The notes beneath the pieces were generated by a model that was given only the letters and a program-made list of their open reading frames with translations, did not search any database and had not been told where the DNA came from. Below are positions 9,973-15,341 of a stretch of 64,000 nt of DNA, piece by piece (position 1 is the first letter of the stretch; each line of letters begins with the position of its first letter). The position numbers were made by a program, and so were the translations under genes. This DNA comes from a virus, in IMG/VR virus record IMGVR_UViG_3300000117_000011, positions 1 through 64,000 of that record. One strand, 5' to 3'.

Positions 9973-10896
9973 ATGAAAGATTTTTTTCTGGAAGAAATTA
10001 AAAAAAGTGGTGGATATTCTTGTTACCATGCACATTTTGACAAAGCTTATTTGATAACTCCTGAAATATTTGAAAAATGCCAATCATCGCTTCAGGAAAA
10101 ATGGAAGCTGTACAGAGGATTTAAAATAAATTACACAAAAGAAACACTTTTAAACAGAATGTCAAAATGTATAGTTAACATGATTAATCAGGACGTGAAA
10201 TATGTCAGAACTTTTGTTGATGCTGATAGTATTGTTGAACAAAAATGTATTGATGCTGCTTTGTGTTTAAAAGAAATTTATAGAGACGAGATAAAAATAG
10301 ATATAGCAATACAACCTCTTGAAGGGTTAGAAAAAACAAAAAGTAAAGAAAACTTTCTAGAAGCTTGCATGAAATCTGATTTTATTGGCGGTCTTCCAGA
10401 CCGAGATTCTTCACCAGATAATCATTTAGATTTGTTGTTTGGTTTAGCAAAAAGTCTTAATAAACCTGTTGACATACACGTTGGTCAAAACAATATCCCG
10501 TCTGAAAAAGAAACAGAGCTTGTGTTGGACAAAATAGAAGAACACAAACTTAAACAAAAAGTTAGTTTAGTTCACTGTATTTCACTTTCTTGTCAAGATG
10601 AGAGCTATATAAGACACCAGGCAAATCGTATGCAGCAATTAAACGTTGATGTGATAGTTTGTCCAAGCGCAGCAATAAGTATGAAGCAGAATCATTCTGT
10701 ATACTCTCCTGTTCATAATTCAATAGCACCTGTCAAGATACTTTTAGAAGAAGGTGTCAATGTTAAATTAGGTATAGACAACATTGAAGATTTATTTATG
10801 CCTTTAGTAGACGGTGACATGTGGTTTGAAACAAGATTGTTAATGGAGGCAACAAGAATTTATGATTTGAAAAAAATACTAAATATAGTAACCTAG
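9973..10896 (+). CDS. metal-dependent amidohydrolase, cytosine deaminase (CodA)-like
   Basis: HAHFDK, VRTFVD, IGGLP, DIHVGQ, VHCISL and LGIDN in CodA-family order. Confidence 0.85.
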   Translation: MKDFFLEEIKKSGGYSCYHAHFDKAYLITPEIFEKCQSSLQEKWKLYRGFKINYTKETLLNRMSKCIVNMINQDVKYVRTFVDADSIVEQKCIDAALCLKEIYRDEIKIDIAIQPLEGLEKTKSKENFLEACMKSDFIGGLPDRDSSPDNHLDLLFGLAKSLNKPVDIHVGQNNIPSEKETELVLDKIEEHKLKQKVSLVHCISLSCQDESYIRHQANRMQQLNVDVIVCPSAAISMKQNHSVYSPVHNSIAPVKILLEEGVNVKLGIDNIEDLFMPLVDGDMWFETRLLMEATRIYDLKKILNIVT

Positions 10897-11366
10897 TCTT
10901 TGTCTAATCTAGGAATCCATTCATCAACTTCACTCGGGAGAACAACGTCAGACTGTTTTTTTGTTTTAATAGGTTTTTCTCCATTACTAAAAACTGAAAG
11001 TTTGTCAATTACAGCATTTTGCAATTCAAATATTTGTTCTCTTAATAACTGCATTTGAATTTGAGAGTCACGTAAGCGTGCTATTAAGGCAGCACGGTCA
11101 GCATTGGCAGTAGCAAGTTTATCCTTTAACTCTTCAACTTCAGATGGATCCCGACCAGATGCAATTGCGAGCATAGAAGAAATACTGCCTGTGAGCATAC
11201 CTATAATACCAATTAGAATATCACGATTTTCTTCAACAATTTTTGTTGTTGATAAAAAATAAATAAGCTCACAAATAAGTGCCATAAATACAACACTAGC
11301 CCACCAACCACGTTTGGCTTTGTCACTTTTTGTAAATTGTTTGTTTGTTTTTTCTTTCTCTGCCAT
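10893..11366 (-). CDS. two-TM membrane protein with C-terminal coiled coil
   Basis: Two hydrophobic helices followed by a heptad-like stretch; starts 3 nt after the cyclase stop. Confidence 0.7.
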   Translation of the reverse strand: MAEKEKTNKQFTKSDKAKRGWWASVVFMALICELIYFLSTTKIVEENRDILIGIIGMLTGSISSMLAIASGRDPSEVEELKDKLATANADRAALIARLRDSQIQMQLLREQIFELQNAVIDKLSVFSNGEKPIKTKKQSDVVLPSEVDEWIPRLDKD

Positions 11367-11369
11367 GAT

Positions 11370-12248
11370 TTAAGATCCTATTAGTATGTTATACAGAAAT
11401 ATATATATATTTTGCAGTAAAGGATACACCCAGCCAATATAATGTTTTAAATCTATTCCTGTCATAGTGTAAAAAATTGCATTTCCATGGAAAGTATTAG
11501 CAGTCTTGATAAGACCCCAAACTAAATAACAAAATATCAAAAAGGAAAGTCTATATATAAACCACCAAAACAATTCATTTAGCGTTTTATTTCTCAATCT
11601 TGTTTTAATTTTTTTTGCGCCACCAATTCGCTTTGCTTTTTCGCCATCTGGAGGTGGTTGTAATTGTGATTCTATTAAACCAATAGCATAAATAGATTCA
11701 GGTTCAGCAACACCTTTAAATTTATATAATCCTACAAGCGCTGACAGGGCTTTTTTAGGTATGTATGGACTCCGGTGCCCATATTTTTTATATTGTATAA
11801 ACGCAGATTTTGAGAGCAATATTTGTTCTTCTCCACATATAGACATAGTTCTTGCTGCAATATTTTTTCCAATTCCTTCAAGGTTAATTCTTTTCCCGCC
11901 AGCTCTTACGATATGTGCTTCAGACTTAACAATAAGCATTTTATCCCAATGTATTCCTACTCTACTACGAAAAGGAAACTTCTTTTTTCGAAGAAACTTT
12001 TTATAGTCAAAAGCAAAACCAATTGAATCTGAAACTTTTGAAAACATCATTAAATGACCATCAGAAGCATCTATTAATTGGCCGTTGTGTCTTGCAATAA
12101 AATTCATGACTGCTTTATCATGAATTCCGAACCACATTGCTGATATTCTTGAGCCATTTTTCTGCACAAACTTAGTACTACCAATTATATCTGTCAAGAC
12201 AATTGCAATATGAGATTCAATCATATTCTCAGGTAAATAATTACTCAT
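11370..12248 (-). CDS. class III nucleotidyl (adenylate/guanylate) cyclase with C-terminal membrane anchor
   Basis: VLTDIIGST, GQLIDASDG, RVGIH, NIAAR, QILLS and FKGV.EP motifs; hydrophobic C-terminus. Confidence 0.85.
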   Translation of the reverse strand: MSNYLPENMIESHIAIVLTDIIGSTKFVQKNGSRISAMWFGIHDKAVMNFIARHNGQLIDASDGHLMMFSKVSDSIGFAFDYKKFLRKKKFPFRSRVGIHWDKMLIVKSEAHIVRAGGKRINLEGIGKNIAARTMSICGEEQILLSKSAFIQYKKYGHRSPYIPKKALSALVGLYKFKGVAEPESIYAIGLIESQLQPPPDGEKAKRIGGAKKIKTRLRNKTLNELFWWFIYRLSFLIFCYLVWGLIKTANTFHGNAIFYTMTGIDLKHYIGWVYPLLQNIYIFLYNILIGS

Positions 12249-12453
12249 TTTTACACACACATTTATCTGATATATTTAGACATTCATAACAAATGCAATC
12301 AGGCCATTTACATTCTAAAGCTATAATGTTACATTTACAATTATATTTAATACATTCACAATCTTTGTTGTCCAGATTACATAAAGGACAAATGTGGTCT
12401 TCTGGAATTGGCTTTGTAAAGTCTCTTATATTTTCTTGAGAAGACATTTGCAT
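12241..12453 (-). CDS. small Cys-rich protein (12 Cys in 70 aa)
   Basis: CxxC and CxC clusters; its stop overlaps the cyclase start (ATGAGTAA). Confidence 0.7.
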   Translation of the reverse strand: MQMSSQENIRDFTKPIPEDHICPLCNLDNKDCECIKYNCKCNIIALECKWPDCICYECLNISDKCVCKNE

Positions 12454-12509
12454 TCCTTTTTGTTTGATATGTAAATAATTATCTGTAGGAATAGTAGAAT
12501 AGAGGTTAT

Positions 12510-12773
12510 ATGTTTGATAAAACTCCCCTGAAAAGTAAAAAGTTTATTGCTTATTTAACGGCTGACGTTGGTTGGAAAATAGTAATTTTATATATGTTGA
12601 CACACTTAAAATCAAAGTTAGAAGCTGGCGAACTAACTTTTTTAATGACAGTTGTTGTTACAAGTGGTGTAATTCAAATAGGCTATATACTAGGTCAAGC
12701 AGCATTAGATAAATATATTAATGCTGCTGTTGAAATTCTTGATAAAGATGATCAAGAAAAAAAGGAAAAATAA
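12510..12773 (+). CDS. holin-like two-TM protein
   Basis: LKSKKF...two TM...YILGQAALD pattern, charged tail, GAGG RBS. Confidence 0.55.
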   Translation: MFDKTPLKSKKFIAYLTADVGWKIVILYMLTHLKSKLEAGELTFLMTVVVTSGVIQIGYILGQAALDKYINAAVEILDKDDQEKKEK

Positions 12774-13273: not shown

Positions 13274-14896
13274 ATGAATTATTGGATCAACCATTTTCCT
13301 TATAAACAACCTAGAGACGCTCAAGAAAAAATTATATCTAAAGTATTAAAAGAATTTAACAATGGGAAAAAATACGCAATCATAGATTGCGGAACAGGCG
13401 TTGGAAAGTCTGCTATAGGTTTAACAATAGCAAGTTACATGAATGAATCTTCAGACTATGAAGGTGTTTATGAACCTGGTTCTTACTTTTTGACAACACA
13501 AAAAGTCTTACAAGAGCAATATGAAAAAGACTTTCGAGACAAAGGAATGATTTCTTTGTATTCTTCATCCAACTATTGTTGTTCAAAAGATGGAAAAGCA
13601 TCTTGCAAAGATATACAGACAGGCTTAAGAGCAAATAGCTTGTCGAAGAAATACGAAAAATGCAAATACAGCTGTGTTTACAAAGCAAAGAAAAAAGACT
13701 TTATTGAAAAAGACAAAGGTATTACAAACTTTTCATATTTCTTGACAGAAAAAAATTATAGTCAAAAAATACCTAACAAAAAAGTTTTAGTTATTGATGA
13801 AGCACATAATCTGGAGTCAGAATTGTCCAGGTTTATTGAGATTAGTGTTTCTGAATATTTCTCAGAAAAAATACTCAAATTAAAAATACCCAAAGACTTA
13901 AATACACAGTTTAGAGTTTTTAATTGGATAAAAAACAACTATATAGTTTCTCTTTCACAAAAGAAACAATTTATTGAAAATCAATTAGAAAAATTTGGTA
14001 TTACTAGTAATAAACTCGATGAGTTTAAAAAAATTACTAATCATTACGAAATGATAACTTCTCATGAAAAAAAAATAAAACAGTTTATAGAGATATACGA
14101 CAAAGACAATTGGATTTTTGATACAGATAACAGTAGTAAGAGTTATAAAAAGTTTATTTTCAAACCAATAGACGTATCTAAATATGCTAAAGACTATATT
14201 TTAAATTATGCTGATTATGTTATATTTATGTCTGCTACAATAATATCACATGAAGGCTTTTGTTTAACTTTAGGTCTTCCAGCTGAAAAAACTGTTGTTG
14301 TAAAAGAAGAATCACCATTTCCTCCGGAGAATAGACCAATAATATTTTCACCTGCAGGAAGTATGTCTTTTAAAAATATAGACAAAACGCTACCAATATC
14401 AATTGAAATGATAAGCTCTATTCTTAGTCATCACAAAGATGAAAAAGGAATAATACATACTCATAGCATAAAAATTTCTGAGTATATTAGAAAAAATATT
14501 CCAAAAAAATATAAAGACAGAGTTTTGATTGCTTATGGCGAAAACAGAGAAACAATGTTAAATAAACACAAAAAATCAAAAAAACCCACAGTCCTCATAT
14601 CACCTTCAATGGCAGAAGGTGTTGATTTAAAAGGCAGTTTATCAAAATTTCAAGTAATATGCAAAGTTCCTTTTCCTTACTTGGGCGATAAGGTCGTCAA
14701 AAAGAAAATGTCTAAATGGGATTGGTGGTATGATGTTTCAACAATTAGGACTATAATTCAAAGCATTGGCCGAAGTATTAGATCAGAAACTGATACTGCT
14801 GTGACATATATACTAGATAGCGATTGGAAGAGACTCTATAATAAGTCTAAAAAAATGCTACCTAAAGATTTTGAAAGAAGTTATTATGAAAATTGA
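13274..14896 (+). CDS. DinG/Rad3-like SF2 helicase
   Basis: Q motif, GTGVGKS Walker A, DEAH, MSAT, EGVD, KVPFP, QSIGRSIR; Cys cluster. Confidence 0.9.
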   Translation: MNYWINHFPYKQPRDAQEKIISKVLKEFNNGKKYAIIDCGTGVGKSAIGLTIASYMNESSDYEGVYEPGSYFLTTQKVLQEQYEKDFRDKGMISLYSSSNYCCSKDGKASCKDIQTGLRANSLSKKYEKCKYSCVYKAKKKDFIEKDKGITNFSYFLTEKNYSQKIPNKKVLVIDEAHNLESELSRFIEISVSEYFSEKILKLKIPKDLNTQFRVFNWIKNNYIVSLSQKKQFIENQLEKFGITSNKLDEFKKITNHYEMITSHEKKIKQFIEIYDKDNWIFDTDNSSKSYKKFIFKPIDVSKYAKDYILNYADYVIFMSATIISHEGFCLTLGLPAEKTVVVKEESPFPPENRPIIFSPAGSMSFKNIDKTLPISIEMISSILSHHKDEKGIIHTHSIKISEYIRKNIPKKYKDRVLIAYGENRETMLNKHKKSKKPTVLISPSMAEGVDLKGSLSKFQVICKVPFPYLGDKVVKKKMSKWDWWYDVSTIRTIIQSIGRSIRSETDTAVTYILDSDWKRLYNKSKKMLPKDFERSYYEN

Positions 14897-15341
14897 AGAT
14901 GTCATTACAGGTGCAGGTGTAATATGTTATTTTGATAATAGAAATAATTTAATTAAAGATTTAGATCAGGAAATCTTATATTTAGTTTTACAAGATTTTA
15001 GAAATAAATACGACTTTACTAAAGGAACAAAAGATAAAGGTGAAGAAGTTCTTGAGTGTGCGATAAGAGAGACTTACGAAGAGTCAAATTTAGATTCTTT
15101 TAATTTTGAAAAAATTTACAATCCTATTATCGCTAATAATAATTTAGTTATGTTTATGGGTCAAATTAAATATGAAACAATGATTCAAAGAAACGATATC
15201 ATAAAACTAAAAATTAACAAACAAATAAACAGTCCAGAGCATAAATCTTATAAGTTTTTAAGCTACAAAAATATTTTAAAAGTTGATTTGTATGAATATC
15301 TTTTACCATACTTAGAATCAGCACAAAATATTTTATATTAA
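14886..15341 (+). CDS. Nudix hydrolase (Ap4A hydrolase-like)
   Basis: AGVI...YDFTKGTKDKGEEVLECAIRETYEESNL Nudix box. Confidence 0.85.
   Translation: MKIEDVITGAGVICYFDNRNNLIKDLDQEILYLVLQDFRNKYDFTKGTKDKGEEVLECAIRETYEESNLDSFNFEKIYNPIIANNNLVMFMGQIKYETMIQRNDIIKLKINKQINSPEHKSYKFLSYKNILKVDLYEYLLPYLESAQNILY

Follow-up and report, generated by a model that had tools for sequence, protein, structure and literature searches.

Why would a phage carry a membrane-anchored nucleotidyl cyclase that is coupled to a small membrane protein? The question is raised by three genes in the window (the whole 64,000-nt stretch that was analysed), which comes from a 95-kb IMG/VR record of an uncultured marine jumbo phage. 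A first-pass annotation, made from the letters alone, had described these genes as a tightly coupled minus-strand operon on phage DNA, and both points hold. Matches to PHROG families for tail-fibre, baseplate, PhoH, and helicase proteins confirm the phage setting, and terminal repeats occur in a complete 239.5-kb relative. The ORFs, the sequence, and the coordinates confirm the coupling. The genes run from a 12-Cys peptide through the cyclase to a 2TM coiled-coil protein, which we will term the partner (Table 1). The stop of the peptide gene and the start of the cyclase gene share 8 nt (the ATGAGTAA overlap), and a 3-nt gap (11367–11369) separates the cyclase stop from the start of the partner. 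The peptide probably has 68 aa, as its homologues and its Atlas record begin at the second ATG (12447).

All three genes are real, not chance ORFs. Homologues number at least 570 for the cyclase, at least 1458 for the partner, and 8 for the peptide. GenBank phages gave no match by megablast with the region or by tblastn with the cyclase and the partner, and the cassette is thus absent from the cultured phages of that database. Scans for sigma-70 promoters and terminators found nothing exceeding shuffled expectation, and the T4-type late promoter TATAAATA was not enriched in the window and did not occur at the operon. An amidohydrolase gene (9973–10896) was considered as a further member and excluded because it is missing from all 18 related loci.

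Table 1. Features of the cyclase locus (positions in the window)
Feature	Position	Strand	Description or basis
12-Cys peptide ORF	12241–12453	-	70 aa from first ATG; 12 Cys
Cyclase ORF	11370–12260	-	292 aa from ATG at 12248
Cyclase, catalytic class III cyclase-homology domain (aa 1–210)	11619–12248	-	Fold, profile, invariant residues
Cyclase, linker and C-terminal anchor, including stop codon	11370–11618	-	Hydropathy, AF2 helices
2TM coiled-coil partner ORF	10893–11366	-	157 aa
Palindrome ATAATTAT, candidate shared promoter/operator element	12475–12482	.	Centred in divergent intergenic region
Holin-like protein, 87 aa, 2TM	12510–12773	+	phrog_9987 'holin', E = 0.004 (weak)

The second gene encodes a real but divergent class III nucleotidyl cyclase, which is predicted from its residues and its modelled fold to be catalytic. 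The AF2 model (pLDDT 95.2) matches Ma1120 and Rv1900c in Foldseek (E ~1e-13, target-normalised TM-score of 0.87–0.92, rmsd ~2 Å), and a profile of the cyclase finds the same two proteins in the PDB (E = 2.8e-18 for Rv1900c, 1ybt; E = 3.4e-15 for Ma1120). These mycobacterial class III adenylyl cyclases (Rv1900c/LipJ, 1YBT and 1YBU; Ma1120, 4WP9 and 5D0E) share the fold of the phage cyclase, but it is only ~21% identical to them. The motifs TDIIGST, LIDASDG, and KNIAAR can be read in the protein, and D20, D60, D63, R96, K119, K128, and R133 are invariant in an alignment of 50 sequences. Both metal Asp residues (D20 and D63) and the transition-state Arg (R133) align with their counterparts in Rv1900c. 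The window protein has the transition-state Asn (N129), as do 41 of the 50 sequences; the other nine have Pro or Ala.

The specificity positions depart from the known pattern. Where Rv1900c and Ma1120 have the Lys/Asn specificity position, the phage cyclase has Asp, and this residue (D60, at the position of the base-specifying Lys) is invariant across the 50 sequences. The second position is N122 in the window protein and Glu in most relatives. None of the canonical base-specifying pairs (Lys/Asp for ATP; Glu/Cys or Glu/Ser for GTP) is found, and the base of the product cannot be predicted because Asp replaces the Lys of adenylyl cyclases and the Glu of guanylyl cyclases. Motifs and alignment thus bear out the earlier description of a membrane-anchored class III enzyme with its metal Asp and Asn/Arg residues intact and a non-canonical specificity position. 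The HMM comparison that the first-pass annotation had proposed gave a divided answer: PF00211 had no hit to the window cyclase at E ≤ 1, but two members of the family exceed its gathering cut-off of 21.9 bits (P0122 with 32.1 bits, P0125 with 29.7 bits). (P0122 had no match in the viral contigs.)

In place of the hydrolase or regulatory domains of Rv1900c and Ma1120, the phage cyclase has a C-terminal membrane anchor, and, unlike them, it is phage-encoded and comes with an obligate 2TM partner. Kyte-Doolittle hydropathy gives one clear TM segment (aa 225–248) followed by a less hydrophobic C-terminal helix, and the AF2 model has helices at 223–251 and 274–290. The basic linker before the anchor (LQPP..EK.KR.GG) is conserved, with P199 and K204 invariant, and the TM sequence itself is poorly conserved.

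The nearest bacterial relatives of the cyclase domain (30–37% identity) belong to TIGR04510, the "putative peptide modification system cyclase" of Lysobacter, Stenotrophomonas, Burkholderiales, and Acidobacteriota, as had been suggested in the first-pass annotation. Both share the motifs ID..DG and AGAK..E.EG..K..AR. The likeness stops at the cyclase domain: the phage protein scores 112.9 bits against a cut-off of 400 and covers profile positions 7–204 of 814, so that it is not a full-length member. TIGR04510 proteins have ~810–880 aa and a long TPR-type C-terminal part, where the phage cyclase has a TM anchor instead. In a tree, the short membrane-anchored cyclases form one clade against the bacterial TIGR04510-like domains (SH-aLRT 99). 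A true TIGR04510 member was confirmed in one of the loci (L031, 1168 bits), and its neighbour encodes a CRP-like cNMP-binding domain fused to GGDEF, which fits the production of a cyclic mononucleotide by this type of cyclase.

The partner has a basic N-terminus, a first TM helix, an invariant ENRD loop, a Gly/Ser-rich second TM helix, and a long conserved cytoplasmic helix with the consensus RDPSEVEELKDKL..ANADR.ALIARLRD.QIQ. That it is a 2TM coiled-coil protein, as first described, is confirmed by hydropathy (Kyte-Doolittle TM segments at aa 20–44 and 49–70) and by a 53-residue helix in the AF2 model (pLDDT 77). Its conserved cytoplasmic domain spans 85 aa. In 80% of pairs, conservation is higher for the partner than for the cyclase, and among pairs whose cyclases are 35–45% identical, the median identity of the partner is 61%. 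We found no Pfam or PHROG family for it, no match in 50,697 GenBank phage records, and neither PF00027 nor another nucleotide-binding family at E ≤ 1. Its Atlas neighbours are viral, without exception. Foldseek with the model returned nothing at E ≤ 0.001, and a wide VIA-align search returned generic helical hairpins and coiled coils (all Z < 7).

The linkage of the two genes holds in other genomes. Of 59 informative metagenome loci, 54 have the partner directly downstream of the cyclase, and the two genes mostly overlap by 4 or 8 nt; the cyclases of these loci share just 27–42% identity with the window cyclase. Among the viral loci, it adjoins the cyclase in 10 of 17 and is displaced by less than 4 kb in 6 more (within 4 kb in 16/17). 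The GC content of the carriers ranges from 26 to 60%. About 20 loci place the cassette between TerS/TerL and the portal gene; in four (L100–L103), it lies inside a baseplate module; and in 23 loci, on two backbones, it lies beside a holin-like gene. The carriers are lytic-type phages, and the cassette sits in their structural modules, outside defence islands or prophages.

The Cys peptide is a real gene, but it is optional. It consists of an N-terminal RDFTKPIPE motif, a CxxC-x6-CxC knuckle, and eight further Cys. Among its homologues, an LRDF..P.P motif usually precedes the knuckle, and C22, C25, and C32 are invariant and C34 nearly so. Its dN/dS of 0.20–0.39 indicates purifying selection. 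Twelve of 18 viral loci have it immediately upstream of the cyclase, as do 6 metagenome loci; it is missing from 6 of the 18 close loci and from most of the distant ones. In other phages, a small lipoprotein gene often takes its slot. So, the linkage that had been described as a three-gene operon is better seen as a two-gene core of cyclase and partner with an optional peptide. Searches of Pfam, PHROG, and PADLOC assigned no family to the peptide; its similarity to rubredoxin knuckles is weak and non-significant (E ≥ 0.19), and its Atlas scores are all below 0.9. A complex prediction for two cyclase domains with the Cys peptide, run on our own alignments, gave a score of 0.00 (mark 0.32, partner fold uncertain), which counts neither for nor against binding.

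Upstream of the cassette, a divergent intergenic region of 62 nt leads to the holin-like gene. The palindrome sits in its centre, at a distance of 27 nt from both start codons (12447 and 12510), and 14 of 17 related loci carry a similar AATAATTAT-like motif 25–35 nt ahead of the start of the operon. The palindrome motif is not enriched across the window and is a candidate for a shared promoter or operator element. The holin-like gene is transcribed divergently from the cassette here and adjoins the cyclase in all 18 viral loci. In five loci (L010–L012, L015, and L019), it is co-directional and forms one overlapping operon with the cassette, and in a different backbone (L116 and L179), it lies downstream. 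The holin-like protein is possibly a functional associate of the cassette.

How might these parts work together? The core is a membrane-anchored class III nucleotidyl cyclase that is translationally coupled to a very conserved 2TM protein. We infer all of the functions that follow. The cyclase would act as a dimer on the inner side of the host membrane and make a cyclic mononucleotide. The partner would be either a membrane effector that answers this signal or a subunit that regulates the cyclase by gating it. The product of the first gene would be an interchangeable subunit for input or regulation, which in this phage is a cytoplasmic, zinc-knuckle-like mini-protein with 12 Cys and in other phages a periplasmic lipoprotein. 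The output would be control of a late envelope event, such as the timing of lysis or superinfection exclusion. We suggest a late envelope event because the operons that hold the cassette are late or structural ones and because, within this phage group, the holin-like gene always lies next to it. Tentatively, and at somewhat less than an even chance, we favor this reading as a phage-specific membrane second-messenger cassette that controls a late envelope event. Some observations run against it: we could recognise no nucleotide-binding domain in the partner, neither the contig nor the complete 239.5-kb relative encodes a PF00027 receptor, PF00211 does not hit the window cyclase at E ≤ 1, the specificity positions are non-canonical, and the transition-state Asn is replaced in some relatives (9/50). 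The link to lysis comes from gene neighbourhood; the holin-like match is weak, and we found neither an endolysin beside the cassette nor a T4-type late promoter at the operon.

The first-pass annotation had compared the cassette to Pycsar, and a competing phage might activate the cyclase, whose nucleotide would open a 2TM pore, as in a Pycsar- or CBASS-like module for suicide or exclusion. The two-gene layout does resemble Pycsar (PycC with PycTM or PycTIR) in that a small membrane protein comes after a class III-type cyclase, and the second TM helix of the partner is rich in Gly and Ser. The likeness does not extend far beyond the layout. Pycsar effectors carry a cNMP-binding domain fused to TM or TIR, and such a domain, which defines the TM effectors, is missing from the partner. 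The PADLOC PycC models match the cyclase weakly (E = 0.0014–0.044, 11–16 bits), and the solved Pycsar uridylate cyclase (8jsz) is found at E = 0.37 only, against the far stronger match to Rv1900c. Also, Pycsar resides in bacterial defence islands, whereas the phage cassette is in the structural modules of lytic-type phages. SLATT effectors of the CBASS type are similar to the partner in that two TM helices precede helical cytoplasmic segments beside a nucleotide-making enzyme. Sub-threshold SLATT_fungal matches (E ≤ 0.1) were found for 31 of 39 partners (best E = 0.0008), covering the TM hairpin alone; the window partner scores 15.1 bits, below the cut-off of 26.5, and hhalign of the partner with an alignment of 11 SLATT_1 domains gave a probability of 2.7%. 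We consider such a module quite improbable. Far less credible still is a RiPP system, with the Cys peptide as the precursor and the TIGR04510-like enzyme as a helper in its modification. The NCBI name of TIGR04510 and the Cys-rich small ORF directly upstream of the cyclase would suit it, but the TIGR04510 likeness lacks the TPR part, the peptide is missing from most cassettes, and its Cys pattern is fixed and structural, with a CxxC/CxC knuckle core. The earlier idea that the peptide is a substrate is unsupported because there are no RiPP-type modification enzymes near the cassette. We do not class the cassette as Pycsar or as a RiPP system, and the SLATT matches of its partner all stay below the Pfam cut-off.

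Another possibility is that the cassette acts much like an auxiliary metabolic gene and reprograms the host: the cyclase would raise cAMP or cGMP and drive CRP-type or other host receptors, and the 2TM protein would be merely an anchor or activator. The catalytic residues are all in place, adenylyl cyclases are the nearest relatives with solved structures, and a host receptor is plausible because we found no phage-encoded cNMP receptor in the contig or the 239.5-kb relative. Adenylate cyclase genes have also been described in the curli (T8SS) clusters of uncultured pelagiphages, with a proposed regulatory role (PMC9599517). These too are marine-phage genes with an adenylate cyclase annotation, a likeness that we draw by description; however, the paper describes no 2TM partner, and CsgG and FecR genes are missing from our phage group, including near-complete relatives. 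Further, the adenine-specifying Lys has been swapped for an invariant Asp, one would not expect a mere anchor to exceed the enzyme in conservation among phages of such different GC content, and positions in structural operons suggest late expression, which is late for a metabolic takeover. Host reprogramming is unlikely, on balance, but we take it seriously. That the 2TM protein is a plain holin or antiholin, with no functional tie to the neighbouring cyclase, seems very unlikely to us. The partner is small with two TM helices, and a holin-like gene is nearby, but it matches no PHROG holin and has a long conserved cytoplasmic domain. Holins are among the most diverse of phage proteins, and the partner is ~60% identical across its family. 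It stays beside the cyclase across unrelated backbones, usually with overlapping stop and start, and no endolysin was recognised among the neighbours of the cassette that would make up a lysis cassette: the partner is tied to the cyclase, not to lysis genes.

To return to the late envelope event, a more specific form of this reading is that several unrelated lytic marine phage types carry a nucleotide-controlled lysis clock or superinfection block, in which the membrane cyclase would make a nucleotide that either gates the phage-only 2TM protein or is itself gated by it, and the zinc-knuckle or lipoprotein sensors would be exchangeable. This is speculative and rather unlikely to hold in full. 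If true, a nucleotide-controlled lysis clock would be a form of phage regulation that has not been described so far. Our literature search, mostly outside subscription journals, found no paper on this cassette, on TIGR04510, or on a phage-encoded adenylate or nucleotide cyclase.

On the bacterial side, cyclic-nucleotide signalling in the conflict with phages is represented by Pycsar, CBASS, type III CRISPR, and Panoptes. On the phage side, to our knowledge, only the degradation or sequestration of the signal is known. The cassette would be a phage-encoded maker of a signal, and its homologues number from hundreds to over a thousand in marine metagenomes, on several phage backbones. The partner, which falls outside the known families and mostly exceeds the enzyme in conservation, would add a family of small membrane proteins to cyclic-nucleotide biology. 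The product of the cyclase and the role of the partner, if determined, could reveal how uncultured marine phages control the timing of lysis, keep out competitors, or reprogram their hosts.

Of the three-gene operon that the first-pass annotation proposed, the linkage of cyclase and partner was borne out, but the Cys peptide gene is optional (present in 12 of the 18 close loci). Of 80 metagenome loci with distant cyclases (representatives 27–42% identical to the window cyclase), 59 extend at least 500 nt past the cyclase on its downstream side. The partner immediately follows the cyclase in 54 of the 59, mostly with overlaps of 4 or 8 nt. The exceptions are locus L178 and the P0126 clade of cyclases (L100–L103); in that clade a gene for a ~102-aa 1TM coiled-coil protein instead lies directly upstream of the cyclase, within a baseplate module. 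(In this subclade, Pro replaces the transition-state Asn of the cyclase.) Close cyclases came from 18 IMG/VR loci, in 10 of which the partner is directly downstream; in 6 it is displaced by insertions of 1.2–3.2 kb, and in one it is missing. Apart from these absences the partner is obligate, and it is phage-only and very conserved. The GC content of the carrier loci spans 26–60%. About 20 loci have the cassette flanked by the small and large terminase genes on one side and a Mu-type portal gene on the other. In relatives of this jumbo phage (L106, L109, and L177), the slot flanked by the holin-like gene and a T5orf172 gene holds a cyclase of the other subtype (EIDRSDG type), ~36–40% identical; the cassette was apparently swapped as a unit.

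The tight coupling described for the three minus-strand genes is also correct: inspection of the sequence shows an 8-nt overlap (ATGAGTAA) of the peptide's stop with the cyclase's start, and by coordinates 3 nt separate the cyclase stop from the partner start. The true start of the peptide is probably the second ATG (12447), because its homologues have 68 aa and residue 3 of the ORF is where the Atlas record begins; an AGGA box lies 7 nt upstream of this ATG. By hydropathy, the cyclase has one clear TM (aa 225–248) and the partner has two (aa 20–44 and 49–70). The window's IMG/VR record (95 kb) has a completeness rating of 38%, and phage matches in the window include tail-fibre, baseplate, PhoH, and helicase proteins. 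The carrier is a jumbo-type phage, since the complete genome of a relative, which has terminal repeats, measures 239.5 kb.

Features of the cassette and its surroundings
Feature	Positions	Strand	Remarks
PRK06886-type amidohydrolase, cytosine-deaminase-like	9973-10896	plus	344 bits
2TM partner ORF	10893-11366	minus	157 aa
Cyclase ORF	11370-12260	minus	292 aa counted from ATG at 12248
Cys peptide ORF	12241-12453	minus	70 aa, 12 Cys (ORF listing)
Palindrome ATAATTAT	12475-12482		centred in 62-nt divergent spacer
2TM holin-like protein	12510-12773	plus	87 aa; weak holin match (phrog_9987, E 0.004)
NUDIX hydrolase	14871-15341	plus	PF00293, 25 bits; after helicase gene

The Cys peptide gene is real, as its dN/dS is 0.20–0.39 (four homologues). 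Its invariant core is a CxxC-x6-CxC knuckle, and most members have an LRDF..P.P motif ahead of it. Short forms end after the knuckle, and the jumbo-phage forms carry eight further Cys in a fixed pattern. The peptide looks like a small zinc-binding (or iron-binding) domain; its sole database matches are non-significant ones to the rubredoxin knuckle. Immediately before the cyclase, 6 metagenome loci have the peptide gene. Another 17 (L111, L115, L116, L122, L123, L128, L129, L131, L134, L137, L139, L151, L153, L160, L166, L171, and L174) and the viral locus L019 have a small lipoprotein gene there instead. The lipoprotein, which belongs to no family in Pfam or PHROG, has a signal peptide, a lipobox, four conserved Cys, and in many cases a C-terminal ..PCENI..LWR. 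Because either gene can precede the cyclase, the operon opens with an exchangeable slot, whose product, cytoplasmic or periplasmic, would be an input or regulatory subunit.

At least 1458 homologues of the partner were found, and it belongs to no family in Pfam, PHROG, or NCBIfam. Its 30 nearest Atlas clusters likewise have no Pfam assignment; of these, the three listed are viral. Its conservation exceeds that of the enzyme in 80% of 2278 pairs; at a cyclase identity of 35–45%, the median partner identity is 61%. Invariant features are a basic N-terminus (KAKRGWW), a tiny ENRD loop, a second TM rich in Gly/Ser, and a cytoplasmic helix (RDPSEVEELKDKL..ANADR.ALIARLRD.QIQ). The monomer is modelled as a helical hairpin with an additional 53-residue helix. 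SLATT_fungal gave weak matches in 31 of 39 partners (best E 0.0008), all under the cut-off and covering the TM hairpin only, and hhalign against 11 collected SLATT_1 domains gave a probability of 2.7%, so the partner does not, on present evidence, qualify as a SLATT protein.

The cyclase is a competent-looking, membrane-anchored class III enzyme. It has no Pfam match even at E ≤ 1, and two family members (38–42% identical to it) pass the PF00211 gathering score. A 50-member family profile matches Rv1900c/LipJ (E 2.8e-18) and Ma1120 (E 3.4e-15), and the AlphaFold model (pLDDT 95.2) superposes on the Rv1900c and Ma1120 structures with TM-scores of 0.87–0.92 (normalised to target) and an rmsd of ~2 Å. 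The claimed motifs (TDIIGST, LIDASDG, and KNIAAR) are all present. D20, D63, R133, K119, K128, and R96 are invariant in the 50 family sequences and N129 is kept in 41, and activity is predicted on this basis. D60, also invariant, aligns with the adenine-specifying Lys; Rv1900c has Asn here, and guanylyl cyclases have Glu. The second specificity position is N122 in the window cyclase and Glu in 40 of the 50. With D60 and N122 at these positions, the substrate is not readable from the cyclase sequence.

An exhaustive search of representatives found 1439 cyclase relatives at E ≤ 0.001. The closest non-phage relatives are N-terminal cyclase domains of 800–1400-aa proteins with TPR, AAA, or kinase parts, and a genome scan led to loci in Lysobacter, Stenotrophomonas, Burkholderiales, and Acidobacteriota. 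In a quick, unrooted ML tree, 50 short membrane-anchored cyclases split from 52 bacterial or long forms (SH-aLRT 99). The TIGR04510 likeness that the first-pass annotation noted is real for the N-terminal cyclase part (NCBIfam, 112.9 bits, E 1.6e-32, profile positions 7–204 of 814), but the score falls short of the 400-bit cut-off and no TPR-type C-terminal part is present, so the cyclase is not a member. One genome-scan locus (L031, Lysobacter enzymogenes) is a true member (1168 bits). The product of the gene before it (L031:3625-4929) is a fusion of a CRP-like cNMP-binding domain and a GGDEF diguanylate cyclase, a hint from gene order that the family named 'peptide modification system cyclase' may feed a cNMP-to-c-di-GMP relay.

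The holin-like gene adjoins the cassette in all 18 close loci: it is divergent in 13, as in the window, and in 5 it is the first of one overlapping four-gene operon. In another backbone (L116 and L179), it lies downstream of the cassette. The palindrome is exactly 27 nt from each start (holin-like ATG 12510 and peptide second ATG 12447), and of 17 related loci, with spacers that are otherwise different, 14 keep a palindrome-like motif 25–35 nt ahead of the operon start, which suggests joint control of the cassette and the holin-like gene. On the other side, the amidohydrolase gene runs toward the partner gene, and their stop codons overlap. As none of the 18 related viral loci has this gene next to the cassette, we rejected it as a cassette member; it resembles an insertion specific to this lineage. 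A protein family similar in size to the NUDIX hydrolase (median 156 aa) is near the cassette in 12 of these 18. Also, in loci with the four genes co-directional (L010–L012, L015, and L019), an ORF lies ~170–200 nt downstream of the partner whose lipoprotein-like product is secreted, Cys-rich, and very acidic; it begins MKKLL... and has E-, D-, and P-rich repeats.

Although the layout recalls the Pycsar architecture raised earlier, the cassette is not a Pycsar member: no cNMP-binding domain was found in the partner, the contig, the near-complete relatives, or the complete relative. A solved Pycsar uridylate cyclase matches the family profile at only E 0.37, and PADLOC PycC models score 11–16 bits against the cyclase. 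A cyclase beside a membrane protein might still act as a Pycsar-like suicide module, which we consider improbable. Host reprogramming via cAMP or cGMP would draw on the predicted cyclase activity, and is possible but unlikely. The two TMs could mark the partner as a plain holin, a very doubtful reading for a protein with an invariant cytoplasmic helix and a fixed place behind a cyclase, and a RiPP system, which the TIGR04510 likeness brings to mind, deserves almost no credence.

The cassette is not described in the searchable literature, and tblastn of the cyclase and partner against 50,697 GenBank phage records matched neither. The nearest mention concerns uncultured pelagiphages in which adenylate cyclase genes neighbour curli genes (PMC9599517); the cassette's phage group has no curli genes. 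Judged by its sequences, the cassette would work like a class III cyclase signalling pair, with cyclase and partner forming a membrane second-messenger module. Because of its structural-operon positions and its holin-like neighbour, we propose that the module would control a late event at the envelope, for example exclusion or the timing of lysis.
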